The notes beneath the pieces were generated by a model. That model searched no databases. It was not told where the DNA came from and worked only from the letters and a program-made list of their open reading frames with translations. Shown in pieces: positions 2,196 to 20,991 of a stretch of 20,991 nt of DNA. The stretch lies in contig JARKSN010000225.1 of assembly GCA_029974275.1 (NCBI GenBank), positions 1 through 20,991 on the forward strand, read 5' to 3'. The stretch is from Candidatus Hydrogenedentota bacterium. Its GTDB lineage: Bacteria; Hydrogenedentota; Hydrogenedentia; Hydrogenedentales; SLHB01. A program made the translations under genes and the position numbers. Within the stretch, counting starts at the first letter, position 1, and every line of letters starts with the position of its first letter.

Positions 2196-5100
2196 TCAAT
2201 CCGATTGCGGCGGCGGCGTGTCGGGGGAGGCATCGAGAACCGCACGGATCTTAGCGGCAAGGGCGCGGATGCCAAAGGGTTTCTGGATGAACGGAATATT
2301 CTCGTCATGCGGCAATTCAGCGGCGAGCGCTTCGTCCGTATAGCCCGACATATACAGCACGCGCATGTTCGGACGGAGTCGCCGCAATCTTCTGGCAAGC
2401 TGGTATCCGCTGCGTTTGGGCATCATCACATCGGTCAGCAATAAATGAATGGGCCCCGGATGCTCCTGACAAAGGCGCTCGGCCTCTTCGGGGTCGGACG
2501 TGTCGATGATCCGATATCCGTTCAGCTTGAGAATGCGCCTCACCAGATGACGAACGATTTCCTCATCCTCCACGACCAAGACGGTTTCGAACCCCTGTTC
2601 CTTGACAGGCGAGGCCGACTCGCCTTCAAAACTCTGCGGAAGGTCCTTCGAACAGGGCAGAAAAACATGGAACGACGTGCCTTGATGCAGTTCGCTCTCG
2701 AAAACAATGGCCCCGCCGCTTTGTTTCACGATCCCGTAGACCGTGGACAGCCCCAATCCCGTGCCGTGCTCTTCGCCCTTGGTCGTGAAAAACGGCTCGA
2801 AGACATGGGCCTTGGCGACTTCGTCCATGCCGCTTCCCGTGTCGCTGACCGACAGCAGCGCGTACTCGCCCGGCTCAAGATCGGCGGGGGGCGATGGCAA
2901 ACCGCCAGGAACAACCACGGTGCGCGTGCGGATCCCCAACTGCCCTCCTTGGGGCATGGCGTCGCGCGCATTGACCACGAGATTGAGAATGACTTGATCG
3001 ATCTGGTTGGGATCGGCCTTTACGGGACAAAGACGATCGTCCGTTGTCACGACAAGTTCGATGTTCTCGCCGATGATTCTACGGAGCATGCGATCCATGT
3101 TCCGAACCACGTCGTTCAGATCGAAAATCCTGGGCTGCAGCACCTGACGGCGGCTAAAGGCGAGCAACTGCTTCGTTAACGCCGCCGCGCGCATGGAAGC
3201 GGCCTTGATTTCCTCCAGATAGGCGTGGGTGGTCTCGGTAAGGGATATATCGGCAAGAAGCAAGTCGGTGCAGCCGAGGATCGCGGTGAGCAGGTTGTTG
3301 AAATCATGCGCCACTCCCCCCGCCAAACGGCCAATCGCCTCCATCTTGTGCGACTGGCGGAGTTGATCCTCCAGGGCTTTGCGTTCCTCCTCGGCGACCT
3401 TGAGCCCCGTGATGTCGCGCTGCGCGCCCCACATCTGCGTCAGCAGCCCCTCCTTGGTGATGCCCACGACATTGTTGAGGAAAAAACGCCGGCAACCGTG
3501 GCGATCCGTATCCTGAATTTCCACGTCGGACTGGCGAAAACCGCTTTGGACCAGCATGCGCAACCGTTCCGGATCGTGCAGCCACCAGCCAAACGAACCG
3601 CTTCGCAGCCGTAGCCCCACCATCTCGAATGCCCGTTCAAACCCGTACATCCGCGCGAACGCGTCGTTGCATTCCGCCACGTAACAGTGCCGGTAAAGAT
3701 GGCGGATTTGCTGTTCCTCATCGAGGTCTAACGGCAGCGGACGGTCCAGTTCACACCGCCAAATGCCTTCGGTCGTTCGCGTGATGAACGCCCGATACCG
3801 CTGCTCGCTCGCGCGCAACGCCTCTTCGGCGCGGCGCCGCTCGAACATCTCGGTCGCCAACGAGACGAAATCGGCGATCGATCCCACGAAATACTGTTCG
3901 TCCAAAGCCCAGGGACGCGGGCCGCCGCAGTGCTCGGCGCTGATAAGTCCAATCATTTCCCCATGCACGCGAACCGCCGCATGCACGAGCGCGCCAATGC
4001 CATGGGGCTGGATGTATGCGGCGAGCATCTCGCCGACCATCGCATCCGCGGCGGCGTCCTGGGAGGTCACCGTCCTGTCTTCGGCGAGACGGTCGAAGTA
4101 GCGCGGGTAATCGGATCGGGACAAGACCAGCCCCTCGGAATAGCGACGAAGCCGACGATCAAAGAGCGCGGCGCACTCCAGTCGGGAACCGTCCTCGGCA
4201 AGAAGCCATGCCCCGGCCCGATCGCACTCGAGCGTCTGGGCGATTAGCTCCACCACCTCGCGGAACGTTGCCGCGAGATCGCTTTCTTCGAGCACTTGAC
4301 TGCGGGTTAGATCGACCAGCACCCGGCTCTGCCGGTTCGATCGGCGCTGAATTTCAAGGCGTCGCGCCATTTCGCCAAGACGAGCCTCGTACTCGGTCCG
4401 CAACTGTTCATTGGGATCCGGCATGATGACGATGGACAGCGTAGCAGGCGCTTCGGATTCCAGAAGATCCCGGTTGATGGCCAGCGCCTCAAACGCATAC
4501 GTTCCGACGGGCAAGTCCTCGAAACGCACTTCCGTCTCCCACGTATCCCGCCACGTCGCGTCGTATCCCAGGAGCCGATAGCTGTACAGCATGTGGCGCG
4601 TCGAGAGCGACAGCGCCGCAAAACGCACCTTGACTTCGTGCGCTTGCGTCAATGTCAGCGAGAGAGTCTTGGGGGGAGGATGCATCGCCTCGTTGGCGTC
4701 TGTGTCCGCACGGATAACGACCTGCGGACGCAATTGGGGGCCGGGACGGTAGATTGCGATGCCGCGATACGTTCCGATCGCCATCGCGCCGTCTTCCAAA
4801 GGAATCAATCCCGCGATGCTGTTGCTGGGCAGACCATCGTCGGTGGTAAGCCATTGAAAATGCTTGCCGTCCGTGATGTAGATGCCGCCGCGAAGCGTGC
4901 CAAACCAGCTCAGCCCCAGCGTGTCCCTGGCGGAACACTGATGGAAGAGGCTGCTCAACCCCTCGCGGGGGCCATAGTTCCGGAAGCGCTGGCCATCGTA
5001 TACACTCAGACCTCCCTGCGTGCCTATCCAAAGCCGATGCTCCGAGTCTTCGAGCAGGGACTGGACGCTGTCATTGGGAAGTCCGTCGTCGCTTCTGTAC

Positions 5101-6527
5101 GTGCGCATGGCGCCATGTTCGAGACACCCCAACCCCCTCGCGTCATACCCGCCAAACCAAAACCGCTTCTGGGCATCCTCCAGCATTCGGAAGATCACGT
5201 TATGGGGCGTCTCGATAGCCTCAAAGACATCGCCATTCAGACACAGCAACGATCCGGGATCTCTCGTGCCCGCCCAGATGGAACCATCAGGCGCTTCATA
5301 TAACGACACGATAGAATCGTTGCCAATGCCATGGGGAGCCTTGAAATGGCGGAGCGGCACGCCCCACACATCGTCGGACGAGGGGAACAGAAAGATGCCG
5401 TCCACCCGCGTTCCCACCCAGAAGCGCCCCTGCGAGTCTTCCAGCAAGGCGTTGATTCTACTGGGAAACGAGCGAGACCGGATAAGATCGTTGTGCAGGC
5501 AGCAAAGCGTTTCATCGTTTCCAAACCACAAACGCTCCTTCCTGTCGCGAATAATCGTCTCCAAGACGGGCGTGTCCGTCAACAGGGTGATGCGATGCGG
5601 ATCAAAACAGCTCATGCCAGAGAGGATATGGGCCACCCATATCTGCTCTTCGTAGTCCTCGAAAAAACAACTGGCGCGGTTGTCCAGCAAGCCGTCGCTC
5701 ACCGAATAGGACACGATGGAGGCTCCATCGTATCGCGCCACGCCGTTTCCCCACGTGGCGAACCACAGGCAGGCGCGGCGATCCGAAAAGACGCACCGCA
5801 AGCGGTTGCTGGGAAGCCCCTGCTCCGTCGTGATCGAAGATATCCGGTCTCCATCCAAACACAACGCGCCGCGTCCGTCCGTGGCCAGCCAAACCCGGTC
5901 TTTGTAATCCAGGGTGATATGCCAGACGGGGACGTGCGGGATATCATGTGTCGTGGGGCGAGCCATCAGGCTATCGGACTCGAAACGCGAGACGCCGCCC
6001 ATGCAACCCACCCAAACAAAGCCGGCGCGATCGGGGCACAGGGACAGCACATGCGGGTGAACTAGGCCGTTGTCGCATGCGATGTTTTGGAACTGGCTCC
6101 CATCGAAGCGCGAAATTCCGGCATGGGTGCCAATCCAGAGCCGTCTGGACGCATCGAATGCCAGGCAGGTGACGTTATTGTCGATAAGACCGTGGTCCTG
6201 GCCGTAAGACGCCGTCACCACGCCGTCTTTCAGGCATGCAATCCCTCCCTCCAATATCCCAAGCCACAACCGGCCCTCCCCGTCAAACAACAAATGGGAA
6301 ATGTTGTTGCCGGGCAACCCGTCGTGCATCGTAAACGTGATGAATCGCGTGCCATCAAACCGGACCAATCCGGCCGCCGTCGCTATCCACAAATAGCCAT
6401 CCCGGTCCTGGGCCAATGCCCTCGCCCCCGCCATGAGCCCGCTGGTCACGTCGAAGGTGCGCCACATGCCCGGGCGCGGAAGCGCCACGCGACTTTCCAC
6501 GTGCGGGAGATGCGCGTCGGCGCTCAT
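2196..6527 (-). CDS. Hybrid sensor histidine kinase/response regulator: two-component regulator beta-propeller repeats, Y_Y_Y, GAF, PAS, HisKA, HATPase_c, REC
   Basis: Repeated 'GLPxNxIxxLxxDxxGRLWxGT' units. Y_Y_Y region 'YSYRLLGYD..W...LPVGTYAFEALA'. GAF-like and PAS/PAC segments ('WGAQRDIT'). H-box 'GGVAHDFNNLL' (His codon 3306-3308), 'NLVVNARDAM', 'DTGSGM' and 'FEPFFTTK..GTGLGL'. Receiver motifs 'VLVVEDE', 'LLTDVMMP', 'MSGY' and 'QKPF'. Confidence 0.93.
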   Translation of the reverse strand: MSADAHLPHVESRVALPRPGMWRTFDVTSGLMAGARALAQDRDGYLWIATAAGLVRFDGTRFITFTMHDGLPGNNISHLLFDGEGRLWLGILEGGIACLKDGVVTASYGQDHGLIDNNVTCLAFDASRRLWIGTHAGISRFDGSQFQNIACDNGLVHPHVLSLCPDRAGFVWVGCMGGVSRFESDSLMARPTTHDIPHVPVWHITLDYKDRVWLATDGRGALCLDGDRISSITTEQGLPSNRLRCVFSDRRACLWFATWGNGVARYDGASIVSYSVSDGLLDNRASCFFEDYEEQIWVAHILSGMSCFDPHRITLLTDTPVLETIIRDRKERLWFGNDETLCCLHNDLIRSRSFPSRINALLEDSQGRFWVGTRVDGIFLFPSSDDVWGVPLRHFKAPHGIGNDSIVSLYEAPDGSIWAGTRDPGSLLCLNGDVFEAIETPHNVIFRMLEDAQKRFWFGGYDARGLGCLEHGAMRTYRSDDGLPNDSVQSLLEDSEHRLWIGTQGGLSVYDGQRFRNYGPREGLSSLFHQCSARDTLGLSWFGTLRGGIYITDGKHFQWLTTDDGLPSNSIAGLIPLEDGAMAIGTYRGIAIYRPGPQLRPQVVIRADTDANEAMHPPPKTLSLTLTQAHEVKVRFAALSLSTRHMLYSYRLLGYDATWRDTWETEVRFEDLPVGTYAFEALAINRDLLESEAPATLSIVIMPDPNEQLRTEYEARLGEMARRLEIQRRSNRQSRVLVDLTRSQVLEESDLAATFREVVELIAQTLECDRAGAWLLAEDGSRLECAALFDRRLRRYSEGLVLSRSDYPRYFDRLAEDRTVTSQDAAADAMVGEMLAAYIQPHGIGALVHAAVRVHGEMIGLISAEHCGGPRPWALDEQYFVGSIADFVSLATEMFERRRAEEALRASEQRYRAFITRTTEGIWRCELDRPLPLDLDEEQQIRHLYRHCYVAECNDAFARMYGFERAFEMVGLRLRSGSFGWWLHDPERLRMLVQSGFRQSDVEIQDTDRHGCRRFFLNNVVGITKEGLLTQMWGAQRDITGLKVAEEERKALEDQLRQSHKMEAIGRLAGGVAHDFNNLLTAILGCTDLLLADISLTETTHAYLEEIKAASMRAAALTKQLLAFSRRQVLQPRIFDLNDVVRNMDRMLRRIIGENIELVVTTDDRLCPVKADPNQIDQVILNLVVNARDAMPQGGQLGIRTRTVVVPGGLPSPPADLEPGEYALLSVSDTGSGMDEVAKAHVFEPFFTTKGEEHGTGLGLSTVYGIVKQSGGAIVFESELHQGTSFHVFLPCSKDLPQSFEGESASPVKEQGFETVLVVEDEEIVRHLVRRILKLNGYRIIDTSDPEEAERLCQEHPGPIHLLLTDVMMPKRSGYQLARRLRRLRPNMRVLYMSGYTDEALAAELPHDENIPFIQKPFGIRALAAKIRAVLDASPDTPPPQSD

Positions 6528-9335: not shown

Positions 9336-12300
9336 TCAGGGCGCTGCGACGGCCATGATTTGGTCGGCGGTCACCGGCGCGGGCGGCGCGACGACGAGTG
9401 CGGGCGCTGCTTGGAGCGTCGCATATGCCGGGTTTGCCGCGATAACGGCGGCGCGGTCTGCGGGAACGGGTTGGCGGTCGCCGCCGACGGGAGCAATGAG
9501 CAACGTCTTGCGCGGGGCTATTGACGATACGATCGCGGGCAGGTCGACATGCTTCAGAATGGACGGGACATAAACGCTTGCGGGCCAGCTTGTCGCAGCG
9601 GGGGATAGGAGGTCGGCGTACGAAGCCAGCGGCCCTTCCGCGATAACGGCGTCAATTTCGGGAATGCAGGCCGCAGCGAGAATGGCCTCGTTGCCCATGC
9701 CCGCAAGCCCTGTCACGCACACGCGCGCCATGCCCGGCTGCGTCTTGAGGAAACGCGCGATAGCCGTGATGTCGGCGATGCGCTCACCAGCGAGGGTTCG
9801 ACCCAGCATCCAGAGGTCTGCCGAAAGCACGGACGCCTGAACATCGGATCGCAGTTCGCCAACGCCGCGCAGGTCCGCTGCGCATACCAACACGCCCCTT
9901 TCGATGAGCTGACGCGCGAGGGGTGAGGCGATGACGTCGGTCTTGCTGCGCTCGCCAATAAGCAACACGGACACCGTCGGCGGCGCGGGCAAGTCGGCCT
10001 TTGCGGCCAGCAAAATCGGCACGGTGATCCCGGCTTCAGGCACGACCGTCACGCGACGCAGTGTGACGCCATCCACCGGCGCGCTCGCCACTTCCACGGG
10101 AGCGCCGATGCCTTCCGGGGCCGGCGTCGCAGTGACGTGACGGATCCGCGCGGCGACTTGTCCTTGCCACGTCGAAAGTTCGGGACCGGCAGCGCCTGCA
10201 GGAGGAGCGGCGAACTCGGGCCCCGCCGTCAATATCTGGTGCACAAGCGCGAGCAACGGTGCGGCGACCGGCTGGTTGCCCTCCGCGAAACAACGCAGAT
10301 TCGGGGCGTCGCTCGGTTCCAGTTGTGCGGGAGCTTCCGGCACGGGGGAACCGTCGCCTTGGGCCAGCAGGCTTTTGGCGAAGAACCCCGCCAAGACCTC
10401 ACGTGTCCTCTGCGCGGCGCCCGGCGTCTCAACGAACACATGGTTTCCCTGTGCCGTCAGCGCATATGCCGCCGCGACCCGCTGCGAAACTTCGCGTGCA
10501 CTGGCGATCGGGGCAAGGCCGCCCTCAACGGCGGCGATATGGCAAAACGGCTTGGGTGCGATGCATGACATTAGTTCGGCCACGCTGGTGAGGGCCGCGA
10601 TGCCCGGCGTTCGGTTATCGAGACCCGCTTCGGCCTTGTGCAGGAATTCCACAAAGGCGCTGGGCGGGGTTGCGAGCGCAACGGCCGCGGGCCGGTCATC
10701 GAGCACGGCGACAATCAGCGCGGTTACGGCGCCGGCTTCATTCCCGCTAGCGATGGCAATCGCCGCAGGGTTGACGACATCCGTGCGCGAGGCAGCGTAG
10801 TCAATGGCGCGCACCGTCTCCCATACCATGATCCCCTGCTGCGTCAGGCCGGCAAGCAGCGGAAAGAGGTGCTGGGGGCGCGCGCCGTCCGCGGAACGCC
10901 GTTCGCCATCGACAATGGTATCGAACACAAGCGCCGCAATGCCTTGACGTGTCAAGTCGACGCACGCCATACGCACATCGGCGTCGGTCTTGTCCGTACC
11001 GCTCAATACCTGAATGACGCACGGGACAGGCCCGGGCGCGTTTTTCGGGCGGTACAGATGCGCGGGGATCGGCAAGCCTGCCCAGCCTTCGAACGTGACT
11101 TTTTCAAGGGTGAAATCGGGATAGTCCAACACGCCCAAGCTCTGCGCGTTTAACGGCGTCTTCTCCGGGAACGGCGAGAGGCCGAGGACCGCTTGCAGTT
11201 TTGTGCGAAGTTCCGCTTTGCGCGCGTTGAGGGCATCCACCGAATCGATCAGCGGCAACGCGTCCTGCGCGGCCTTGGCCAACGCAACGACAAGATCGCG
11301 CATCTGGTTCGCAAGCGGCGAGTCCTTTTCCCAACTCCGCGCGGCATTGAAAAGATTGCCGGAAGCGGGGTCGGGGGCGCGTTCGGAGATGTCCTTTTCG
11401 ATGGCCGAAAGCTCCTGCTGGTATAGCGGAAGCACGTCGGCCCAATGATACGGCGTGGGCAGGGTCGACGTTGGCGTGGATGCCGGAATATCGCTGATGC
11501 TGTCGTAGGTGTTTGCGGTCAACGCGGTCAACGCCTGGAACTCCGCGACCGACGCACGAAGGTTTTCCAAACAAGCCTTTGAATTGCCGACGGGATCGAT
11601 CCCGGCGTCGAACAAGGCCTTTGCGATGGCCGCCGCGACCTTGTGCAAATAGAAACGGGCTACATGCGCGACCGCTTCCGCGTCCGTTGCGATGCGTTGC
11701 GCGTCGGGTTGGTTGCGCACAGCCTTTTGGACGCCGTCCCGAGCCGAAGCAAGCGCCTTGTCGGCTTCGGCCACTTTTGTGGCGAGATAGTCGATGGGCG
11801 AGATCCCCTCGATGGATTTGCCTGCCTTGACGGCGTCAAGGTAGGCCGGGATGCGCACCATGCCCGGCGCCGGCAGGAACGGAGCGCCCCTCGCCTGCAG
11901 TATCTGATCGAGATAGGCCCCAGCCGCCACGACCGTCTGGGCATCGCCCCCGATCCACAACAAACGCTGAATCGCCGGAAGCACGTCCGCACCCTGCTCA
12001 AACGCGTCCAGCAGCGCCGTGGCCGCATCGAGCGCGCCATAGGTTTGCGTCAAGCGATACGTCCAATAAGGGCGCTCGGCATTCGGATCGCGATTCGGGT
12101 TCCACGCATACCGGCCCCATGCTTCAAACCACATCCAATCCCGATTCCATTGGAATTCCGCCGGCTCCACCTTGTCGCAGCCGTAGGGCCATCGCCATGC
12201 CGTGCGCGCGGAAAGGTCCAAGCCGTTTGCGCCAAGCGCGATGGCATGTTGCAGGCACTTTTGCACATAGGTGGGGGGACTCCACCGGAACGGATCCAAA

Positions 12301-13427
12301 TTGGCCGCTCCCTGCACCGCCAGGATGTGACTGCCGGCGATAGCGGCCCATTCCTTGATGGCGGGATTCGCCTCGGGGGCGGCGAGCATTGCGGCGTTAT
12401 AGGCATGCTCGGTGGAAAGCTTCGGATATTTCACCGCGAGCGCCTTCATGTGTTCGACGTCCATTCCCTCGGAACGCGCCACGATGGCTGGGGTCTTGCC
12501 TGAACGCTGCACCGCTGCGAGAACGACGCCGTCAATCCACTCGAACGCGACTTGCGGCGATGGCGATTGCCCCGGATGGATGTAGAGACCAACGCCCGGA
12601 AATTCGCCAACGAAGCGCTCCAGACAATGGCCGCAGTAGTCCTTCAACGCGTCCGGCGAATCCGGAATGCCGCCCCCCGGCGATCCGTGCGCTTTGGAAA
12701 ATCCGACGGGCGCATGGGCGACATGGAATTCGAACATCAACGTGATGTTTCGTTTCTCGGCCTCCGCGCCCAACCACAACAACAGATCATGATTTTGCTG
12801 GATAACCGCAGGGGCTATATCCGCTTGCGCTTCGGGATACTTCTCCATCGCCACAAAATACTCAAAGGGATGGTTATGACCGAACACAAGGGCGTTGTAG
12901 CCGTTCTCCGCCAGAAAATCCAGATACCGCGCCCAGATGCCTTTATCGTAGAGGAAGGGGAAATCCTGCGGCGTAATCGGCGTGTCGGCGTTGCCCGCCT
13001 TCATCAAGCGGATGGTCACGCCCCGGACCGTCATCACCGGGGCATCGGCAACGTCCAGTTGATCGGGCAAACGCCCCTGTTCCCGTACGCGGCGAACGAG
13101 ATCCAAACTCCCATAGAGCACGCCCGCATGATCAAAACCGATAATGCGAACACGATCAGGCAAGGCGACAATCCGATACCCTTCGGCCCGGCGCGCCCCC
13201 TCGGGCAAGTCCATTTCCAATTGGGACAGCGATATTTCAACGGCGCCCGGCGTGCCCGAAGCGGGGCCCTGGCCTACCTCATTCAAGGCGGACGTGATGC
13301 GCTCAATCGACCAAAGGGTGCGCGGATCCGCCACGACTTGGACCGTCGCGGCGTCAACCGCGAGGGGAGAGAGCGCGCATCCTGCAAGCCACAACGTCAA
13401 CCACATCGGAAAGCGCATGCGTTTCAT
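9336..13427 (-). CDS. Exported multidomain protein: N-terminal GH138 (alpha-galacturonidase)-like module fused to tandem alpha/beta-hydrolase (acetylxylan esterase/dienelactone hydrolase-like) domains
   Basis: Signal peptide 'MKRMRFPMWLTLWLAGCALSPLAVDAA'. GH20-domain-2-like 'EGYRI....IIGFDHAGVLYG'. Motifs recalled from Bacteroides GH138 enzymes: 'FPFLYDK..W..YLDFL.EN', 'HPF', 'ANLDPFRW', 'W.WPY..DK' and 'RDW.W..AWGRYAWN'. C-terminal half has 'KTPLNA..LG...EKVTFE....IPAHLYRP', 'WETVRAIDY' and 'AADLRGVGE'. Confidence 0.75.
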   Translation of the reverse strand: MKRMRFPMWLTLWLAGCALSPLAVDAATVQVVADPRTLWSIERITSALNEVGQGPASGTPGAVEISLSQLEMDLPEGARRAEGYRIVALPDRVRIIGFDHAGVLYGSLDLVRRVREQGRLPDQLDVADAPVMTVRGVTIRLMKAGNADTPITPQDFPFLYDKGIWARYLDFLAENGYNALVFGHNHPFEYFVAMEKYPEAQADIAPAVIQQNHDLLLWLGAEAEKRNITLMFEFHVAHAPVGFSKAHGSPGGGIPDSPDALKDYCGHCLERFVGEFPGVGLYIHPGQSPSPQVAFEWIDGVVLAAVQRSGKTPAIVARSEGMDVEHMKALAVKYPKLSTEHAYNAAMLAAPEANPAIKEWAAIAGSHILAVQGAANLDPFRWSPPTYVQKCLQHAIALGANGLDLSARTAWRWPYGCDKVEPAEFQWNRDWMWFEAWGRYAWNPNRDPNAERPYWTYRLTQTYGALDAATALLDAFEQGADVLPAIQRLLWIGGDAQTVVAAGAYLDQILQARGAPFLPAPGMVRIPAYLDAVKAGKSIEGISPIDYLATKVAEADKALASARDGVQKAVRNQPDAQRIATDAEAVAHVARFYLHKVAAAIAKALFDAGIDPVGNSKACLENLRASVAEFQALTALTANTYDSISDIPASTPTSTLPTPYHWADVLPLYQQELSAIEKDISERAPDPASGNLFNAARSWEKDSPLANQMRDLVVALAKAAQDALPLIDSVDALNARKAELRTKLQAVLGLSPFPEKTPLNAQSLGVLDYPDFTLEKVTFEGWAGLPIPAHLYRPKNAPGPVPCVIQVLSGTDKTDADVRMACVDLTRQGIAALVFDTIVDGERRSADGARPQHLFPLLAGLTQQGIMVWETVRAIDYAASRTDVVNPAAIAIASGNEAGAVTALIVAVLDDRPAAVALATPPSAFVEFLHKAEAGLDNRTPGIAALTSVAELMSCIAPKPFCHIAAVEGGLAPIASAREVSQRVAAAYALTAQGNHVFVETPGAAQRTREVLAGFFAKSLLAQGDGSPVPEAPAQLEPSDAPNLRCFAEGNQPVAAPLLALVHQILTAGPEFAAPPAGAAGPELSTWQGQVAARIRHVTATPAPEGIGAPVEVASAPVDGVTLRRVTVVPEAGITVPILLAAKADLPAPPTVSVLLIGERSKTDVIASPLARQLIERGVLVCAADLRGVGELRSDVQASVLSADLWMLGRTLAGERIADITAIARFLKTQPGMARVCVTGLAGMGNEAILAAACIPEIDAVIAEGPLASYADLLSPAATSWPASVYVPSILKHVDLPAIVSSIAPRKTLLIAPVGGDRQPVPADRAAVIAANPAYATLQAAPALVVAPPAPVTADQIMAVAAP

Positions 13428-13850: not shown

Positions 13851-13880
13851 TTGACAGGGGACAGGGCGATATGGTAACAT
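13851..13880 (+). promoter_or_regulatory. sigma70-type promoter of the rex-hyd operon
   Basis: Perfect -35 TTGACA (13851-13856), 18-bp spacer and extended -10 TG-G-TAACAT (13872-13880), 65 nt upstream of the rex ATG. Confidence 0.7.
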
Positions 13881-13881
13881 C

Positions 13882-13899
13882 TTGTGAAACAATTCACAA
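13882..13899. promoter_or_regulatory. Rex operator
   Basis: TTGTGAA-ACAA-TTCACAA is an exact match to the established Rex consensus TTGTGAA-N4-TTCACAA. It sits directly downstream of the -10 box and upstream of rex. Confidence 0.92.
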
Positions 13900-13945: not shown

Positions 13946-14590
13946 ATGGTGTCCAGCAAAACCATCGGTCGTCTCAGCCAATACCGACGCCTACTGCAGA
14001 ATCTGCTAGGAGAAGGGCGGGAATTCGTATTTTCCCACGAGTTGGCCACGATGGCCGGGGGCACGGCGGCCCAGGTGCGGCGCGACGTGATGGCGGTGGG
14101 ACATCTGGGCAGCCCAAGCAAAGGGTATGGCGTTTCGGCACTGCTGGGAAGCATCGCGGACTATCTGGATGGCGCCGATATACTGGGGGTTGCCTTGGTC
14201 GGCGTGGGCAATTTGGGCCGGGCGTTGTTGGCGTATTTCGTGGGACGTCACCCAACGCTGGAACTCAAGGCGGCGTTCGATTGCGATCCGGCGAAAATTG
14301 GCCGGGTGATACACGGGTGCCGCTGTCTGCCCATGGAAGAAATGGCGCGGGTGGTCGAGGAGGAGAGGATCAAGGTCGGGGTCATCACGGTCCCTGCTGA
14401 AGACGCCCAACGCGTGGCGACAGTGCTTTGGCAGGCGGGCGTGCTCGGAATTGTGAATTTCGCTCCGGTGCGGTTGTGGACGCCCGCGTCGGTGCATGTC
14501 GAGCAGATTGACCTTACAACGGTGTTGGAGCAGGCCGCGTTTTTTGCGCGTCGCCAGGACAAGGACGCAGGGAAGGAAGTTGGCAGATGA
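13946..14590 (+). CDS. rex: Redox-sensing transcriptional repressor Rex
   Basis: N-terminal 'SKTIGRLSQYRRLL...FSHELA....TAAQVRRDV...G..SKGY', Rossmann 'LVGVGNLGRALLAY', then 'AAFD' and 'GIVNFAP'. Start moved from the track's 13688 to ATG 13946 because the upstream extension crosses the promoter and operator. Confidence 0.95.
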   Translation: MVSSKTIGRLSQYRRLLQNLLGEGREFVFSHELATMAGGTAAQVRRDVMAVGHLGSPSKGYGVSALLGSIADYLDGADILGVALVGVGNLGRALLAYFVGRHPTLELKAAFDCDPAKIGRVIHGCRCLPMEEMARVVEEERIKVGVITVPAEDAQRVATVLWQAGVLGIVNFAPVRLWTPASVHVEQIDLTTVLEQAAFFARRQDKDAGKEVGR

Positions 14591-15084
14591 CACAGGCAAC
14601 ACAAGACCCCGTAGCGGATGTTGGGCCCATCTTGGAGAAATATCCGGACGCCAAACGGGATGCCCTGATCCCGATCATGCAGGAGGTGCAGGACGTCTTC
14701 GGCTATCTCTCGCGGAGCGCCATCGTGCAGATTGGCAAACATCTGAATTTGCCGGCAAGCAAGATTTACGGCGTGGCGACATTTTACAACCAGTTCCGCT
14801 TTCAACCGTTAGGCAAATACCACATCCAAATTTGCCGCGGAACGGCCTGTCACGTGAAGGGATCAGCGGGCGTCCTCGACGCGGTCAAGCAGGAACTGAA
14901 TATCGAGTCGGGCCAGACCAGCCGCGATGGGCAGTTCAGTCTTGAAGTCGTGGCATGCATCGGCGCCTGTGGCTTGGCGCCGGTTATCTGCATCAATGGG
15001 GAATTCTTCGCAAACCTGACTCCGGCCAAGGTTCGCGAGATTGTGAACAACTACCGGGAAGAGGCGGGGAACGATGTCCAATAA
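14587..15084 (+). CDS. hydC: [FeFe]-hydrogenase HydC/gamma subunit (NuoE-like, thioredoxin-fold [2Fe-2S])
   Basis: 'LIPIMQEVQ..FGYL', 'YGVATFYNQF', 'CRGTACHVKG' and 'ACIGACGLAP' (four Cys ligands). ATGA overlap with the rex stop. Confidence 0.93.
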   Translation: MTQATQDPVADVGPILEKYPDAKRDALIPIMQEVQDVFGYLSRSAIVQIGKHLNLPASKIYGVATFYNQFRFQPLGKYHIQICRGTACHVKGSAGVLDAVKQELNIESGQTSRDGQFSLEVVACIGACGLAPVICINGEFFANLTPAKVREIVNNYREEAGNDVQ

Positions 15085-17182
15085 GCTGCTCGAAAACAAA
15101 TGCTGCACAGAATGCTGGCATGGCGCGGACAAACCGTGCCCCGACCTGATCGATTGTCTCGTCGGCCCTCCCGTGTGCCATGCCTCCGGGGCCTGCGAAG
15201 ACGCGCACCGTCACACTATCGCCCGTTTGCGCCGGGAAGAGGTAACGCGCACGGTCATTTACGTCGGCGCGGGCACGTGCGGCTTGGGCGCGGGCGCGGG
15301 CAAGACGCTCATGGCCATTCGCGAGCACTTGGCGAACAAGCGGATCGAGGCGGACATCGTCGAGGTGGGATGCATTGGCATGTGCTCGGCGGAACCCTTG
15401 ATGGATATTCAGCTTCCAGGGCGCACGCGCGTTTCGTTTCAGGGCGTCACGGCAGACAAGGTCGATGATTTGCTCGACAGAACCTTCAAGGGCGAGATTC
15501 CCGAAGCGAACCTGCTGGGGCAATTCCGGAATCAGGCGCTGAAGGCGTGGCCTGGCGTGCCCTATCTGGAGGAACATCCTTTCTTCGCGCCGCAAACACG
15601 CTGGGTCCTGGCCAATTGCGGCATCATCGACCCGGCATCGATCGACGAATACATCGCGTTCGGCGGCTACAAGGCTCTTGCGAACGCATTGCGCGGCATG
15701 ACGCCGCCGGAAGTGTGCGACGCCGTCGAAAAAGCCGGCCTCCGGGGACGTGGGGGCGGCGGATTCCCGACGGGCACGAAGTGGAAATTCGCCCTGAAAA
15801 CCGAGAGTCATCAAAAATACATGGTCTGCAATGCCGACGAAGGCGACCCCGGGGCCTTTATGGACCGCGCAGTGATCGAAGGCGCGCCGCACCAATTACT
15901 GGAAGGCATGGCTATCGCCGCCTACGCCATCGGCGCGTCAAAGGCGTATGTGTACATCCGCGCGGAATACCCGCTCGCGATTCGCCGCTTGAAAGACGCC
16001 ATCGCCCAAGCCAAGCAGTACGGCCTGCTCGGCGAGAACATCCTCGACAGCGGGTTCAACTTGGAAATCGTCATCAAACAAGGCGCCGGCGCGTTCGTGT
16101 GCGGCGAAGAAACGGCCCTGTTGAACAGCATCGAAGGCAAACGCGGCATGCCGCGTCCGCGCCCGCCGTTCCCTGCCGTAAAAGGGCTTTTCGAAAAACC
16201 CACGGTCATAAACAACGTCGAGACCTTGGCCAACGTCCCGGGCATCATCGCCAACGGCGCGGAGTGGTTCGCGTCGGTCGGCACAGAAACCAGCAAAGGC
16301 ACCAAGGTGTTTGCACTGTCCGGCAAGGTCGCTCGCACCGGACTGGTTGAAGTCGCCATGGGCACTACGATCCGTGAAGTCGTGTTCGATGTCGGCGGCG
16401 GCATTCCCAATGGCCGCGCCTACAAAGCCGTGCAAATCGGCGGGCCTTCCGGCGGCTGCATTCCGACCCAGCACCTCGATATCAAAGTCGACTACGAATC
16501 CCTCAAGACCGTCGGCGCGATGATGGGTTCCGGCGGACTGGTCGTGATGGACGACGCCACCTGCATGGTGGACGTCGCGAAGTTCTTCATGGAGTTCATC
16601 CAGCGCGAAAGCTGCGGCAAATGCATTCCCTGCCGAGAAGGCACGCGCCGGATCCTGGAGATACTCGAACGCATCGTGAAAGGACGCCGGGGAGAGTCGG
16701 GCATCGCTGCATTGGAGCGTTTTCACGGGGTTCTGTATCTCGAACGTCTCTCGAAGGTCATAAAAGACAGCAGTTTGTGCGGACTTGGCCAGACGGCCCC
16801 CAACCCGGTGCTGAGCACATTGCGCTGGTTCCGCGACGAGTACGAAGCGCACATCTACGAGCGGCGCTGTCCGGCGGGCGAATGCCAGGAACTGCGCACG
16901 TTCCAGATTGACCCCGAGAAATGCGACGGCTGCGGGTTGTGCGCGTCGCGGTGTCCGGCCGAAGGGGCGATTGTGGGGATGCGGCGCAAGATTCATTACA
17001 TCATCGATGACCGTTGCATCGGCTGCGGCACATGCGTCGATGCGTGCCCGCAGAAAGCCATCTCGCTGTCGATTCCCGTCGAAGAAACGACGGCGCCGGA
17101 AGATGGAACGGTGCAAGGCGTGTTCGCCGGCGGCGTATTCAGCAGTTGGAATCGCGGCAAGGCATTGTTCCGGAGCAAGTAG
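15074..17182 (+). CDS. hydB: [FeFe]-hydrogenase HydB/beta subunit (NuoF-like; FMN/NAD-binding, multiple Fe-S clusters)
   Basis: 'GLRGRGGGGFPTG', 'CNADEGDPGAFMDR', 'GAGAFVCGEETAL', 'GGPSGGC', 'ESCGKCIPCREG...SLCGLG', 'H.....CPAGEC' and two C-terminal CxxCxxCxxxCP motifs. Overlaps hydC by 11 nt. Confidence 0.95.
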   Translation: MSNKLLENKCCTECWHGADKPCPDLIDCLVGPPVCHASGACEDAHRHTIARLRREEVTRTVIYVGAGTCGLGAGAGKTLMAIREHLANKRIEADIVEVGCIGMCSAEPLMDIQLPGRTRVSFQGVTADKVDDLLDRTFKGEIPEANLLGQFRNQALKAWPGVPYLEEHPFFAPQTRWVLANCGIIDPASIDEYIAFGGYKALANALRGMTPPEVCDAVEKAGLRGRGGGGFPTGTKWKFALKTESHQKYMVCNADEGDPGAFMDRAVIEGAPHQLLEGMAIAAYAIGASKAYVYIRAEYPLAIRRLKDAIAQAKQYGLLGENILDSGFNLEIVIKQGAGAFVCGEETALLNSIEGKRGMPRPRPPFPAVKGLFEKPTVINNVETLANVPGIIANGAEWFASVGTETSKGTKVFALSGKVARTGLVEVAMGTTIREVVFDVGGGIPNGRAYKAVQIGGPSGGCIPTQHLDIKVDYESLKTVGAMMGSGGLVVMDDATCMVDVAKFFMEFIQRESCGKCIPCREGTRRILEILERIVKGRRGESGIAALERFHGVLYLERLSKVIKDSSLCGLGQTAPNPVLSTLRWFRDEYEAHIYERRCPAGECQELRTFQIDPEKCDGCGLCASRCPAEGAIVGMRRKIHYIIDDRCIGCGTCVDACPQKAISLSIPVEETTAPEDGTVQGVFAGGVFSSWNRGKALFRSK

Positions 17183-17230
17183 GGCCATCAACGCAGCGCC
17201 CGGACCCTCGCGGCGCATGAGGATACGCGA

Positions 17231-18955
17231 ATGACTACCACGATCGAAGTGAACGGACGCTCTGTCAAGGCAAAACCCGGCGAAATGCTTCTGGCTGCGC
17301 TGAAACGCTCGGGCGTCACCGTGCCGACATTGTGCAACATGGAAGGCCTGTTTCCCAGCGGCGCATGCCGCATGTGCGTCGTTGAACTGGAAGGGCGCCC
17401 AGGCTTGGTGCCGAGTTGTTCATGTCCCGTGACCGAGGGGATGAAAGTCCACACCCATTCCCCGCGGGCGCTCATGGCGCGCAAGACCATCGTCGAATTG
17501 CTGCTGGCCAACCATCCCGACGACTGCTTGTACTGCGTCCGCAACAACACATGCGATTTGCAGAATCTTGCGTCCGAGTTCGGCGTGCGTCAACGCCGCT
17601 ATGCGGGCGCCAAAAACTCGTACACGGAAGATGCATCGAGCCCCTCCATCGTGCGCGACCCTGCAAAATGCATTTTGTGCGGCAAATGCGTGCGCGTGTG
17701 CGAGGAGATTCAGGGCGTCTCGGCGATCGACTTCACGGGCCGCGGCAGTCAAGCCTGCATCGGCACGGCGTTTGACGAAGGCCTGAATGTATCGAGCTGC
17801 GTCAATTGCGGCCAATGCATCGTGGCGTGTCCAACGGGCGCGCTGCGCGAGCATAGCCACATCAAGGAAGTGGTCAACGCGCTCAAGAACCCAGACAAGA
17901 TCGTCGTGGTGCAACACGCGCCGAGCGTATCCGTAACCCTGGGTGAGGCATTCGGGATCAAGGCCGGCACGGACGTCAGCGGCATCATGACATCGGCCCT
18001 GCGGCAGCTTGGGTTTGACCGCGTGTTCGACACGTCCTTCAGCGCCGACCTCACCATCATGGAAGAGGCCAGCGAACTGGTCCACCGCGTGGCCAACGGC
18101 GGCAAGCTGCCGATGATGACGAGTTGCTCGCCGGGATGGATCAAGTACGTCGAAGAGTTTCACCCGGATTTCATGGAAAACCTCTCGACATGCAAAAGCC
18201 CGCAGCAGATGCTGGGCGCCATCATCAAAAGCTATTACGCCGAACGCGAGGGAATCGACCCGCGCAAAATTTTCAGCGTGGCCATCATGCCGTGCACGGC
18301 CAAGAAATTCGAAGCGGGCAGGCCGGAAATGATTCATGACGGCGTGGCCGACGTCGACGCCGTGCTGACGACGCGCGAATTGGCCCGCCTCATCCGCATG
18401 CGAGGGATCGCGATGCAGTCCCTTACGCCGGACATGCCCGACAATCCCTTCGGCGAGCGCAGCACGGCGGGCAAGCTGTTCGGCGCGACGGGCGGCGTGA
18501 TGGAAGCCGCGGTTCGCACGGCGCATTTTCTGATTACAGGCAAGGAACTCGAAGGACTCAAGGTTGAAGCGGTGCGCGGACTCGACGGCGTCAAGGAAGC
18601 CACGGTGAAAATGGGCGATCTGGAAGTGAACGTCGCCGTGGTCAGCGGGCTGCAAAACGCGGCCAACCTCTTGAAGGAAGTGAAGGCGGGACGCAAAAAC
18701 CTTCATTTCATCGAGGTGATGACGTGTCCGGGCGGTTGCATCAACGGCGGCGGACAGCCCTTCACGACCAACATGGATGCCGTGCGCGAGCGGATGCAGG
18801 CGCTGTATGCCATTGACCGAGACGAACCGGTGCGCACATCGCACGGCAATGCCTGGCTCAAGAAACTGTACGACGAATATCTTGGCGCCCCGTTGGGCAA
18901 AAAGAGCCATCGGCTGTTGCACACGCATTACGCCAAGCGCGAGGTGTTGCGCTGA
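17231..18955 (+). CDS. hydA: [FeFe]-hydrogenase catalytic subunit HydA (group A, multimeric type)
   Basis: N-terminal [2Fe-2S] (PTLC..GACRMC..SC), His-ligated [4Fe-4S] (HPDDCLYC.....C) and 2x[4Fe-4S]. H-cluster motifs 'TSCSPGW', 'MPCTAKKFE' and 'EVMTCPGGCINGGGQP'. C-terminal 'LLHTHY'. GAGG RBS at 17219-17222. Confidence 0.96.
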   Translation: MTTTIEVNGRSVKAKPGEMLLAALKRSGVTVPTLCNMEGLFPSGACRMCVVELEGRPGLVPSCSCPVTEGMKVHTHSPRALMARKTIVELLLANHPDDCLYCVRNNTCDLQNLASEFGVRQRRYAGAKNSYTEDASSPSIVRDPAKCILCGKCVRVCEEIQGVSAIDFTGRGSQACIGTAFDEGLNVSSCVNCGQCIVACPTGALREHSHIKEVVNALKNPDKIVVVQHAPSVSVTLGEAFGIKAGTDVSGIMTSALRQLGFDRVFDTSFSADLTIMEEASELVHRVANGGKLPMMTSCSPGWIKYVEEFHPDFMENLSTCKSPQQMLGAIIKSYYAEREGIDPRKIFSVAIMPCTAKKFEAGRPEMIHDGVADVDAVLTTRELARLIRMRGIAMQSLTPDMPDNPFGERSTAGKLFGATGGVMEAAVRTAHFLITGKELEGLKVEAVRGLDGVKEATVKMGDLEVNVAVVSGLQNAANLLKEVKAGRKNLHFIEVMTCPGGCINGGGQPFTTNMDAVRERMQALYAIDRDEPVRTSHGNAWLKKLYDEYLGAPLGKKSHRLLHTHYAKREVLR

Positions 18956-18985
18956 CCCGTCAGGTCTGCGCGCGGAGAAACGCAA

Positions 18986-20991
18986 ATGGTTCCGGGAATG
19001 GATATGCCGCTCATCACGACACGCCCCGAGTTCTGCCGGGCGTGCTACACGTGCGTGCGGGAATGCCCTGCCAAGGCGATCCGCATCGCCGAAGGCCAAG
19101 CGCAAGTGCTCCCGGACCGTTGCATCGCCTGCGGAAATTGCGTGCAGGTATGCAGCCAGCGGGCCAAGCAGGTCGCCAGCTCCGTCGGTTTTGTGACTGG
19201 GCTATTGCAGAGCGGCGCGCGCCTTGCCGCATGTCTGGCGCCGAGTTTTCCCGCCGAGTTTCCGTTCGCCGACCCGGCGCGCGTTGCGGGCATGATCAAG
19301 GCGCTGGGATTCGCATACGTGCACGACGTCGGTTTCGGCGCGGACCTTGTCTCGTTGCGGTACCGCCATCTCGTGGAAAACGCCCAGGGCCATCGCTACG
19401 TTGCGACGAATTGCCCCGCCATCGTGGGCTACGTCAAACGCTACCACCCCGAACTTGTCTCGGCCTTGGCTCCGCTGGTATCTCCGATGATCGCGATGGC
19501 GCGGGTGGCCCGTACGTTGCACGGCCCCGACGTCGGCATCGTGTTCATTGGTCCGTGCATCGCCAAAAAGGCGGAGGCCGCCGATCCGGATTTGCCGCGC
19601 GAGGTGGATGCCGTGCTGACATTTGCCGAGTTGCAGCAGATGTTGCTGGTCGGCGGCATAAAGCCGGAGAGCGTCGCCCCAGTGGATTTTGATCCGCCGA
19701 TCGGAGGTCTGGGAGGTCTGTTCCCCCTAAACCGCGGCATGCTCCAGGCGGCCAGCATCCATGAGGACCTGATCACCGGCGACGTGATTTCCGCTGAAGG
19801 ACGCGCCCATTTCGTCGAGGCGATAAAGGATTTTGAAGACGAAAACCTTGATGTATCCCTCCTCGAAGTGCTCTGCTGCAACGGCTGCATCATGGGCGCC
19901 GGCATGACGACGCATGCCTCCCTCTTCAATCGGCGGGCCCGCGTCAGCCAGAGCGTGCGCCGTCGCATGACCTCCTTTGACAAAGCCCAATGGTGGGGAC
20001 ACATGGAGCGTTTTGCGGGGCTTGATCTGTCGCGCACGTATAGCGCGTTCGACCAGCGAATCGCGCCGCCCTCCTTCGCCAAGCTCAGTGAAATCATGGC
20101 GCGCATGGGCAAGCATGGCCCCGAGGACGAACTGAACTGCGGCGCCTGCGGCTACGACACCAGCCGCGAACATGCGAGTGCAAAATTCAAGGGGCTGGCG
20201 GAAATCGAAATGTGTCTTCCCTTCGCCATCGAAAAACTGCGGAGCACGGTGAAGGATTTGGCCGTTTCCAACCAGCAATTGGCCGAAACCCAGGAAGCCC
20301 TGATGCAGTCCGAAAAACTGGCCAGCATGGGCCAACTGGCCGCGGGCATCGCTCACGAACTCAACAACCCCCTGGGCGTCGTGTTGATGTATGCCCATCT
20401 CATGTTGGACGAACACGAGCGCGATCCCAAGGTGCGCGAAGACCTTCAAATGATCAGCGATCAGGCCGACCGATGCAAAAAAATCGTGGCGGGCCTGCTG
20501 CACTTCGCCCGTCAAAACAAAGTCGATTTGGAACCTGCCGATCTGCGCGAGTGGGTGGCGGGGGCGCTGCGCTTGAATCCCGCTCCCGAAAACGTTAGCG
20601 TCCGCGTCGAGCATTGCGAGGCCGACTCGACGGTGGAGGCCGACGCCAGTCAGATGCTCCAGGTTTTGGCGAACCTGATTTGGAACGCATACGCCGCGAT
20701 GCCGGACGGCGGCGAACTCTCTATCCAGACCAACGGCGACGCGGAATGGGTGCGTATTGCCATCGCCGACACGGGCGTTGGAATTCCCAAGGAAAACATG
20801 GCGAAGGTTTTTGAGCCGTTCTTCACGACGAAAGAGAACGGCAAAGGCACAGGACTGGGGCTGGCGGTTTCGTACGGAATCGTGAAAATGCACCGAGGCT
20901 CTATCGACGTGATCTCCAACAGCGATCCCCAGATCGGCCCGACCGGCTCGACCTTTGTCGTAAAACTCCCCCGGCATGTAGTTTCGGAACC
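18986..20991 (+). CDS. Group C sensory [FeFe]-hydrogenase-histidine kinase fusion (3'-truncated by window edge; not in the ORF track)
   Basis: Translated by hand: ATG 18986 (GGAG at 18974-18977) stays open to the window end, at least 668 codons. MVPGMDMPLITTRPEFCRACYTCVRECPAKAI...CIACGNCVQVC gives 2x[4Fe-4S]. H-domain motifs are 'LAPSF', 'ATNCPAIV', 'GPCIAKKAE' and 'EVLCCNGCIMGAG'. These are followed by an Fe-S motif 'NCGACGYDTSRE...EMCLP', a coiled coil, 'AGIAHELNNPL', 'NLIWNAYAAM', 'DTGVGI' and 'FEPFFTTK..GTGLGL'. Confidence 0.92.
   Translation, partial: MVPGMDMPLITTRPEFCRACYTCVRECPAKAIRIAEGQAQVLPDRCIACGNCVQVCSQRAKQVASSVGFVTGLLQSGARLAACLAPSFPAEFPFADPARVAGMIKALGFAYVHDVGFGADLVSLRYRHLVENAQGHRYVATNCPAIVGYVKRYHPELVSALAPLVSPMIAMARVARTLHGPDVGIVFIGPCIAKKAEAADPDLPREVDAVLTFAELQQMLLVGGIKPESVAPVDFDPPIGGLGGLFPLNRGMLQAASIHEDLITGDVISAEGRAHFVEAIKDFEDENLDVSLLEVLCCNGCIMGAGMTTHASLFNRRARVSQSVRRRMTSFDKAQWWGHMERFAGLDLSRTYSAFDQRIAPPSFAKLSEIMARMGKHGPEDELNCGACGYDTSREHASAKFKGLAEIEMCLPFAIEKLRSTVKDLAVSNQQLAETQEALMQSEKLASMGQLAAGIAHELNNPLGVVLMYAHLMLDEHERDPKVREDLQMISDQADRCKKIVAGLLHFARQNKVDLEPADLREWVAGALRLNPAPENVSVRVEHCEADSTVEADASQMLQVLANLIWNAYAAMPDGGELSIQTNGDAEWVRIAIADTGVGIPKENMAKVFEPFFTTKENGKGTGLGLAVSYGIVKMHRGSIDVISNSDPQIGPTGSTFVVKLPRHVVSE

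Follow-up and report, generated by a model that had tools for sequence, protein, structure and literature searches.

A PAS-less [FeFe]-hydrogenase-histidine kinase in a Hydrogenedentota hydrogenase operon as a candidate H2 sensor

The 20,991-nucleotide contig JARKSN010000225.1 of a Candidatus Hydrogenedentota bacterium (assembly GCA_029974275.1), hereafter the window, ends in a gene (18986..20991, plus strand) that joins the H-cluster domain (H-domain) of an [FeFe]-hydrogenase directly to a histidine kinase. The gene is real and has the architecture first described for it, and its product is probably a soluble, dimeric, H2-responsive kinase that works by conformational coupling and hands phosphate to two neighboring receivers. 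PAS-less hydrogenase-kinase fusions are an already published kind, and the protein is a handle rather than a discovery. Whether and how "sensory" [FeFe]-hydrogenases sense H2 is an open question because the two studied examples lack a known measurable output, and finding interaction partners is the missing step (PMC13104023). In the protein described here, the output lies on the same chain and likely substrates are encoded next door, making H2 sensing directly assayable, and variants in the clusters and the helix could separate redox from conformational coupling. With the class already catalogued, the value of the protein lies in this direct test, together with a lead on hydrogenase control.

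Anatomy and class of the sensor kinase

The sensor-kinase gene (bfuT) carries a GGAG (18974-18977) ahead of its ATG and stays open over 668 codons (18986..20989). As the window is a complete contig (C326 of the assembly, designated G000), the stop lies beyond the contig end. In two near-identical assemblies (loci L031 and L032), found with a sequence pattern taken from the window end, the stop comes 12 codons further on and completes a protein of 680 amino acids, as expected from the original prediction of at least 668 codons with a stop outside the window. A further C-terminal receiver or PAS domain past the window end is ruled out by this stop. No overlap of 15-40 nucleotides was found between the window end and the other contigs of G000; L032 runs on through 24 bases absent from G000 into the end of contig C89 at 100% identity, and the C326-C89 join across this 24-base gap is taken from L032 alone.

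A Pfam scan of the protein finds a 4Fe-4S dicluster domain at residues 13-59, Fe_hyd_lg_C at 80-305 (E 1e-42), the iron-sulfur (FeS) family PF04060 at 383-412, HisKA at 448-510 and HATPase_c at 553-663, and no PAS family at E<=0.001. Together with alignment, these matches define, on the plus strand, an N-terminal 2x[4Fe-4S] ferredoxin domain (Cys17-Cys56; 19034..19153), an H-domain with a short P3 loop (Cx2C) and the group C-type residues Asn142, Gly189 and Leu296 (19223..19900), a C-terminal FeS domain with the motif Cx2Cx4Cx16C (Cys385-Cys410; 20138..20215), the third Cys of which is Ser in this assembly, a HisKA/DHp domain (20327..20515) with the phospho-accepting His457 (codon 20354-20356), and a HATPase_c domain whose N, G1, F and G2 boxes are all intact (20642..20974). 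Between the last FeS cysteine and the DHp domain, alignment and AlphaFold2 place a signal helix (20216..20326). The highest 19-residue Kyte-Doolittle mean is only 1.68 and lies within the H-domain, so no transmembrane segment is evident. The domain order, the histidine codon and the lack of transmembrane and PAS segments had all been read correctly beforehand, and the short coiled-coil linker then proposed corresponds to residues 415-449.

The AlphaFold2 model, built from a 75-sequence alignment (mean pLDDT 86.6; predicted template modeling score 0.66), contains a single continuous helix at residues 411-476 that includes this linker and begins right behind the last FeS cysteine, Cys410. In Foldseek comparisons, the model matches solved [FeFe]-hydrogenases and the ZraS kinase core. 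No solved group C or D hydrogenase is among the structure matches listed, and neither the protein of Thermotoga maritima (TmHydS) nor that of Thermoanaerobacter mathranii (TamHydS) is among the best 60 of 67 in one such comparison. A profile comparison relates the H-domain to the adjacent hydrogenase subunit HydA with a probability of 99.9. The HisKA domain is NtrB/AtoS-like, with the H-box HExxNP as well as the N, G1, F and G2 boxes, and its best NCBIfam match is AtoS, under the equivalog cut-off of that model. Architecture, conservation and context support well the earlier description of one soluble polypeptide that combines a hydrogenase-type input with a sensor kinase.

All of the 120 listed best matches share the Pfam core without PAS, and 119 of them are full-length, with 60-66% identity. 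In all 119 full-length relatives, the H-cluster ligands Cys143, Cys191, Cys298 and Cys301, Lys194 of the P2 motif, Glu197, His457 and the N and G boxes are invariant, and the Cx2Cx4Cx16C motif is complete, as it is in L031 and L032. The H-cluster motifs align with the group A motifs of the adjacent HydA. The proton-transfer residue Cys299 (CpI numbering) is replaced by Asn142 here and by Thr (75) or Ser (31) among the 119 relatives, while Met353 (CpI numbering) is replaced by Gly189 in all of them. These replacements are a signature of the putative sensory hydrogenase groups. The residues Ala85-Pro86-Ser87, Ser166-Pro167, Lys194 and Phe246, which we take to line the di-iron pocket, are kept. 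By analogy with TmHydS, which has likewise lost the proton-transfer Cys and carries Met353->Gly (PMC8163306, PMC10055695), the input module would be a low-turnover group C-type [FeFe]-hydrogenase that is presumably loaded with an H-cluster. The maturation genes hydE, hydF and hydG score above NCBIfam cut-offs on contig C156 of G000, and they adjoin the sensor gene in L001-L004 and L050.

The FeS motif of this assembly requires a separate comment. Its third cysteine position, residue 393, is Ser in the window and Cys in 119 of 119 relatives; the window also has Ser398, as well as Lys400 at a position that is Ile in all 119. These three substitutions (20162, 20178 and 20184, plus strand) are private to this assembly and most likely stem from a sequencing or assembly error. 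Both L031 and L032 carry T at all three bases; within 19100-20991 for L031 and 19542-20991 (1450 bases) for L032, nothing else distinguishes them from the window. Contigs from runs X1 and X5 also have T at 20178 and 20184, the two positions listed for them. It is very improbable that the substitutions are real and that the sensor gene is damaged in this strain, leaving the FeS domain minus one ligand. Ser393 and Lys400 at otherwise invariant positions are what such damage would produce, but all three changes are away from T and fall inside 23 bases, two assemblies with an exact match elsewhere over 1.4-1.9 kb have the family residues, the X1 and X5 contigs agree with them, and G000 holds a second full-length copy with its FeS domain on contig C62. 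Over 16975-19099, L031 differs from the window at 31 positions, and from 19100 to the end at none except the three suspect bases, possibly reflecting a strain mosaic.

Published relatives and distribution

The closest published system is the group C3 protein "BfuT" of sub-type V clusters, which carries a histidine kinase domain and whose gene lies downstream of bfuA; its 119 reported copies are from Hydrogenedentota, with a best HydDB match to WP_006928132.1 (group C3) of ~52% and an organization common to Caldithrix abyssi (PMC11406978). The window gene shares with it the group C-type H-domain and histidine kinase, the lack of PAS and the gene order C-B-A-T (PMC11406978). The partner BfuA (574 amino acids) likewise ends in an Fe_hyd_SSU domain without a C-terminal A5 cluster domain and has Ser at P1 position 5, the stretch T297-S298-C299-S300-P301 being invariant in 14 of 14 sequences, and no architectural difference was found. 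The C3 label used here is taken from that account for this architecture. Of the earlier assignment to the histidine-kinase-linked group C class, the group C type stands, while PMC11406978 places this form in C3 (BfuT sub-type V) and not in C1. The implied rarity of the fusion does not stand, given the 119 copies in Fig. S4 of PMC11406978 and matches to residues 1-505 at E<=1e-100 in 57 of 135 genomes from this phylum. Neither "response regulator" nor "Rex" occurs in the main text of PMC11406978, so the downstream receivers and their wiring are not described there. In Caldithrix, too, rex together with a Rex site stands at the start of the operon (PMC5317091).

Other accounts describe similar or related proteins. 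Group C enzymes noted for Elusimicrobia lineage V (bioRxiv 10.1101/765248) and for Ca. Lernaella stagnicola (PMC9324843) likewise have a kinase domain instead of PAS and lie beside a trimeric group A3 enzyme; in the former, Rex is nearby as it is here, but the sensor is placed upstream of the trimer. Both are single-sentence mentions, without mechanism or partners. HydDB group C1, "histidine kinase-linked (putative)", was likewise proposed to sense H2 through histidine kinases, but it is a sequence cluster of a similarity network (PMC5037454), and the kinase-fused T(V) proteins are placed in C3 (PMC11406978). TmHydS (group C, M2f) has the same 2x[4Fe-4S] domains, H-domain and Cx2Cx4Cx16C motif, lacks the proton-transfer Cys and carries Met353->Gly (PMC8163306, PMC10055695); however, it has its own PAS domain and no fused output, whereas the window protein has no PAS match, a continuous helix and a kinase. 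At the Cys299 and Met497 positions, compared by published residues, the window protein has Asn and Leu and TmHydS has Ala and Ser. TamHydS (group D, M2e) resembles the window protein in its lack of PAS, its three-cluster complement and Leu at the Met497 position, and is predicted to form a parallel dimer along its C-terminal helix (PMC13104023). Unlike the window protein, with Gly189 and a fused kinase, TamHydS stands alone, without a kinase, and has Ser/Thr at Met353; group D also has a specific proton path (PMC10407848). No biochemical study of a kinase-fused [FeFe]-hydrogenase was found in the accessible literature, mostly without subscription journals, in agreement with the original prediction.

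Among 40 relatives, 17 encode an orthologue of the sensor with more than 50% identity. Named loci with the fusion belong to Lentisphaeria, Sedimentisphaerales, Myxococcales and Desulfobacterales, and the Atlas clusters of the fusion are mainly from Bacteroidota, Myxococcota and Ignavibacteriota. For the sensor, the best named relatives carry the label Phycisphaerae/Planctomycetes; for the small downstream receiver, the best one carries the label Ca. Hydrogenedentes (69%). Some Atlas clusters contain the FeS and kinase domains without the H-domain and are probably fragments. The second full-length sensor copy of G000 (44% identity) lies on C62 behind another hydrogenase operon and is followed by two receivers. 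In that operon (L048:2102-13957), HydB has 1061 residues with DPD_II and FAD domains, corresponding to sub-type I of PMC11406978; the operon also encodes the 44% sensor paralogue, a small receiver and a receiver-PAS-kinase, and upstream reading frames resemble, by eye, DRTGG, PHP and ATPase-type regulators.

A more distant survey took in 150 top-ranked representatives (at 50% identity), and 32 of them were scanned for output domains. Direct kinase fusions account for 38 of the 150 (31 NtrB-like, five WalK/PhoR-like, one HisKA_3 and one frameshifted). Among the 32 scanned, the same module is joined without PAS to GGDEF, sigma-54 AAA+, MCP and HisKA_3 outputs, and kinase fusions through PAS or GAF exist too; this variety of PAS-less outputs suggests that the hydrogenase module acts as a portable sensor. 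In P0137, P0142, P0250, P0153, P0157, P0185 and P0167, the module, again without PAS, is joined to a diguanylate cyclase, a sigma-54 activator or a chemoreceptor domain. A FastTree analysis of 125 sequences gave no support for monophyly of the PAS-less kinase fusions, the outputs being interleaved with low deep support; its "PAS" label derives from tail clustering and is Pfam-confirmed for P0177 and L025 only, P0156 having no PAS at 1e-7. In two distant direct fusions, P0182 and P0224, the phospho-accepting His is replaced by Cys and Phe, respectively, and these are possible pseudokinases.

Signal coupling and relay

Between the last FeS cysteine and the phospho-accepting histidine, the spacing is 47 residues in the window protein and in 119 of 120 close homologues. 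In 29 of the 31 distant NtrB-type fusions, it is 33, 40, 47, 54 or 68, all congruent to 5 modulo 7, and in the remaining two it is 48 and 49. Four of the six distinct spacings other than 47 are therefore in heptad phase (p ~0.005 against a uniform null, a value that includes non-independent kin and the general tendency of coiled coils to change by heptads). The conserved phase fits mechanical coupling through the coiled coil. In the mechanism we favor, H2, or equivalently the H+/H2 poise at the H-cluster, would alter the redox or protonation state of the H-cluster and of an N-terminal cluster. A conformational change would then pass through the C-terminal FeS domain, which would serve mainly as a rigid cap, and the phase-conserved coiled coil would set the autophosphorylation of His457.

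The original prediction instead had the redox state of the adjacent FeS domain drive the kinase helix: oxidation of H2 would reduce the C-terminal cluster, which would flip the helix. The last cluster ligand, Cys410, indeed begins the signal helix in the AlphaFold2 model, and none of its four ligands varies among the 119 relatives. A signaling role for this cluster was proposed in PMC8163306 and earlier work, and an AlphaFold model of TamHydS has the C-terminal cluster near the N-terminal one (PMC13104023). However, the homologous cluster of TamHydS stayed oxidized under 1 atm H2 at pH 6-8, its disruption barely altered catalysis, and the H2-induced change in secondary structure was independent of it (PMC13104023). 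Furthermore, conserved acidic residues around the motif (Asp381, Glu382, Glu406 and Glu408) could lower the potential of the cluster. A redox switch in the FeS domain is thus quite unlikely, and the failure of H2 to reduce the TamHydS cluster makes conformational coupling the likelier route.

It is also conceivable, though unlikely, that the protein is no H2 sensor and instead reads the pool of reduced ferredoxin by way of its N-terminal clusters, or the availability of the H-cluster or FeS clusters (apo versus holo), and so reports redox load or maturation. Such a role would be consistent with the basic residues conserved across the ferredoxin domain (Arg25, Lys30, Arg33 and Arg45), the shortened P3 loop, the frequent linkage of hydEFG to the sensor gene and the co-regulation with Rex. 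Against it stands the retention of the residues presumed to line the di-iron pocket. Moreover, maturation and H2 turnover are documented for each of the two characterized relatives (PMC8163306, PMC10055695), and the sensor copy in L045 lies divergent from a putative [NiFe]-hydrogenase cluster (unconfirmed by family scan), which suits H2 better than it suits FeFe maturation. In that locus (G033:C39, 10907-18162), the sensor gene is accompanied by a receiver-kinase gene, and the putative [NiFe]-hydrogenase would be a cytoplasmic one.

Behind the sensor gene, C89 encodes a single-domain receiver of 135 amino acids (the small receiver) and a receiver-HisKA-HATPase protein of 393 amino acids (the receiver-kinase), followed by the gene of an unrelated 2463-residue protein. 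No DNA-binding response regulator is encoded in the operon, the gene past the receiver-kinase on C89 being that of the unrelated protein. Among 20 orthologous loci (>50% identity, downstream region visible), the receiver-kinase is present in 17, the small receiver in 15, both in 13 and neither in one; paralogous sensor loci have both in five of five. The phospho-acceptor and kinase residues of the receiver-kinase are conserved in 17 of 17 sequences, and the phospho-acceptor residues of the small receiver are conserved as well. By best NCBIfam match, the sensor kinase (AtoS) goes with the receiver of the hybrid receiver-kinase (NtrX/AtoC/NtrC), and the kinase of the hybrid (PnpS/PhoR/WalK) goes with the small receiver (GlrR, RpaB and PhoB; PhoB for its paralogue). 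In P0128 (a cluster of five), the sensor module is fused straight to the kinase type of the hybrid (46% versus 29% identity), which fits a cascade.

The sensor would thus pass phosphate to the two receivers encoded on C89, in the best-fitting order first to the receiver of the second kinase and from there to the small receiver; in a close alternative, it would phosphorylate the small receiver directly. Either way, the wiring ends at the small receiver. Two conserved, family-specific insertions are candidate partner-binding surfaces: one at residues 25-40 of the receiver-kinase, after helix 1, and an acidic/aromatic one at residues 95-114 of the small receiver, after strand 4.

Several observations weigh against the proposed H2-responsive kinase and its relay. 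H2 sensing by kinase-fused group C-type proteins is proposed by analogy, and TamHydS belongs to group D, so that the result on its C-terminal cluster may not transfer to a group C-type sensor. The P3 loop is one residue short: Cx2C occurs in 30 of 31 NtrB-type direct fusions and most other direct-output forms, whereas group A (two of two) and PAS-type HydS (46 of 53) have the one-residue-longer Cx3C, and loading of the di-iron site by the shorter variant is a prediction from sequence. The five WalK-type direct fusions fall into two phases (24, 24 and 38 versus 27 and 34). As for the relay, the class matches all lie far under cut-off, and the top match of the small receiver, GlrR, is NtrC-like. 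The fusions P0150/P0516 and P0409 join the small-receiver type to the C-terminus of the sensor kinase, favoring direct transfer over a cascade. Orthologue L044 has neither receiver nor a hydrogenase nearby. Finally, G017 (L056) keeps rex-hydCBA and both receivers with the sensor gene cleanly absent, and G032 (L057) is similar, which points to a relay independent of the sensor kinase.

The small receiver, the operon and Rex control

A tentative and rather improbable extension is that the small receiver is a dedicated partner of electron-bifurcating HydABC: phosphorylated on H2 either directly or through the second kinase, it would attach to the flavin core that contains HydB and modulate the enzyme post-translationally, and the relay would then not end at a promoter. 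The three matches of the small receiver in G000 (E<=1e-8) correspond to its three group A hydrogenase operons, on C89/C326, C62 and C261. Across 41 genomes, 33 of 55 receiver matches have a group A hydA at a distance of 8 kb or less, some of them in operons without a sensor, as do 33 of 41 full-length matches, a count that omits 14 matches limited to the first 105 residues; many are orthologues of the same operon type rather than independent events. The eight full-length misses comprise two contig breaks and six that on inspection lie outside hydrogenase operons. Conversely, 31 of 59 group A genes have a small receiver of this kind nearby. Where the sensor is apart from or divergent to hydCBA (L043, L045 and L050), the receiver-kinase is kept behind the sensor and the small receiver is not. 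Together, these distributions suggest an association of the small receiver with group A hydrogenases rather than with the sensor. The C261 operon (G000:C261:3772-7916; L054) opens with the gene for a member of the small-receiver subfamily, and the visible region has no sensor kinase.

Complex prediction of the small receiver with HydB 55-606, HydC 12-160 and HydA 2-170 gave weak support, with a score of 0.57 (runs 0.65, 0.56 and 0.57), against 0.00 for the best of three controls; the runs share at least 90% of contacts, and the partner pLDDT is at least 80. In calibration, passes came from 116 of 157 solved complexes and two of 215 mismatches, but passes at 0.60 or less comprised only 18 of the 157 solved complexes and both mismatches, so that a pass in this range is more often wrong than right unless the complex is likely beforehand. 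The receiver-core job was also unlike those of the calibration, gave no interface output and used non-receiver domains as controls. A fusion of the small receiver to HydA appears in a single unverified record, P0399, in which the linker contains a Met and a stop may have been lost; P0392, P0393, P0395 and P0396, likewise longer than the small receiver that they contain, were set aside as apparent frameshift fusions. No hydrogenase-bound receiver was among the best 60 of 75 structure matches, and no paper linking a single-domain or CheY-like receiver to bifurcating hydrogenases was found in the accessible literature, which included few subscription journals. If correct, this would be phospho-control of an electron-bifurcating enzyme itself, for which no description was found in the same literature.

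With the contigs joined through L032, the operon reads rex-hydC-hydB-hydA-sensor-receiver-receiver/kinase on one strand. Its first gene, rex (13946..14590), encodes a 214-residue NADH/NAD+-sensing repressor with several Rex models above cut-off. Family models identify hydC/bfuC (14587..15084), a NuoE-like [2Fe-2S] subunit, and hydB/bfuB (15074..17182), a flavin mononucleotide/NADH subunit with C-terminal 2x[4Fe-4S] domains. The catalytic group A [FeFe]-hydrogenase, hydA/bfuA (17231..18955), has the P1 motif TSCSP and scores above the cut-offs of TIGR02512 and NF040763; all four genes are on the plus strand, and 30 bp separate the hydA stop from the sensor-kinase start. RNA contigs of run X11 cover parts of the operon, one of them (18840-19180) the hydA/sensor junction, and were not used as evidence since neither strand nor a single transcript is resolvable from them.

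Upstream of rex, a sigma-70-like promoter candidate agrees with the consensus at 10 of 12 positions (13851..13880, plus strand), a match by consensus only, with three such matches found in the region against 2.1 expected by chance. Right behind its -10 box, 13882..13899 is a perfect match to the Rex operator consensus quoted in PMC5317091, the sole site without mismatch in the 4.38 Mb genome, which has nine sites at two or fewer mismatches. Rex sites at this threshold (<=2 mismatches) occur near the rex start in eight of 12 rex-bearing relative loci. Rex would thus separately tie transcription of the operon to NADH/NAD+.

A second Rex gene of G000 lies right behind hydF-hydE (G000:C156:25329-25997; L055:9830-10495). 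The N-terminal prefix of HydB (15074-15235) is cysteine-rich and weakly matches NF040902 (32.8 bits, cut-off 45), and an extra metal site is possible. Elsewhere in the window, the minus strand encodes a 1443-residue hybrid kinase (2196-6527) with beta-propeller, Y_Y_Y, GAF, PAS-like, HisKA, HATPase and receiver domains, and a 1363-residue reading frame (9336-13427) whose sole Pfam annotation is a sub-threshold acetyl xylan esterase match at residues 775-920.

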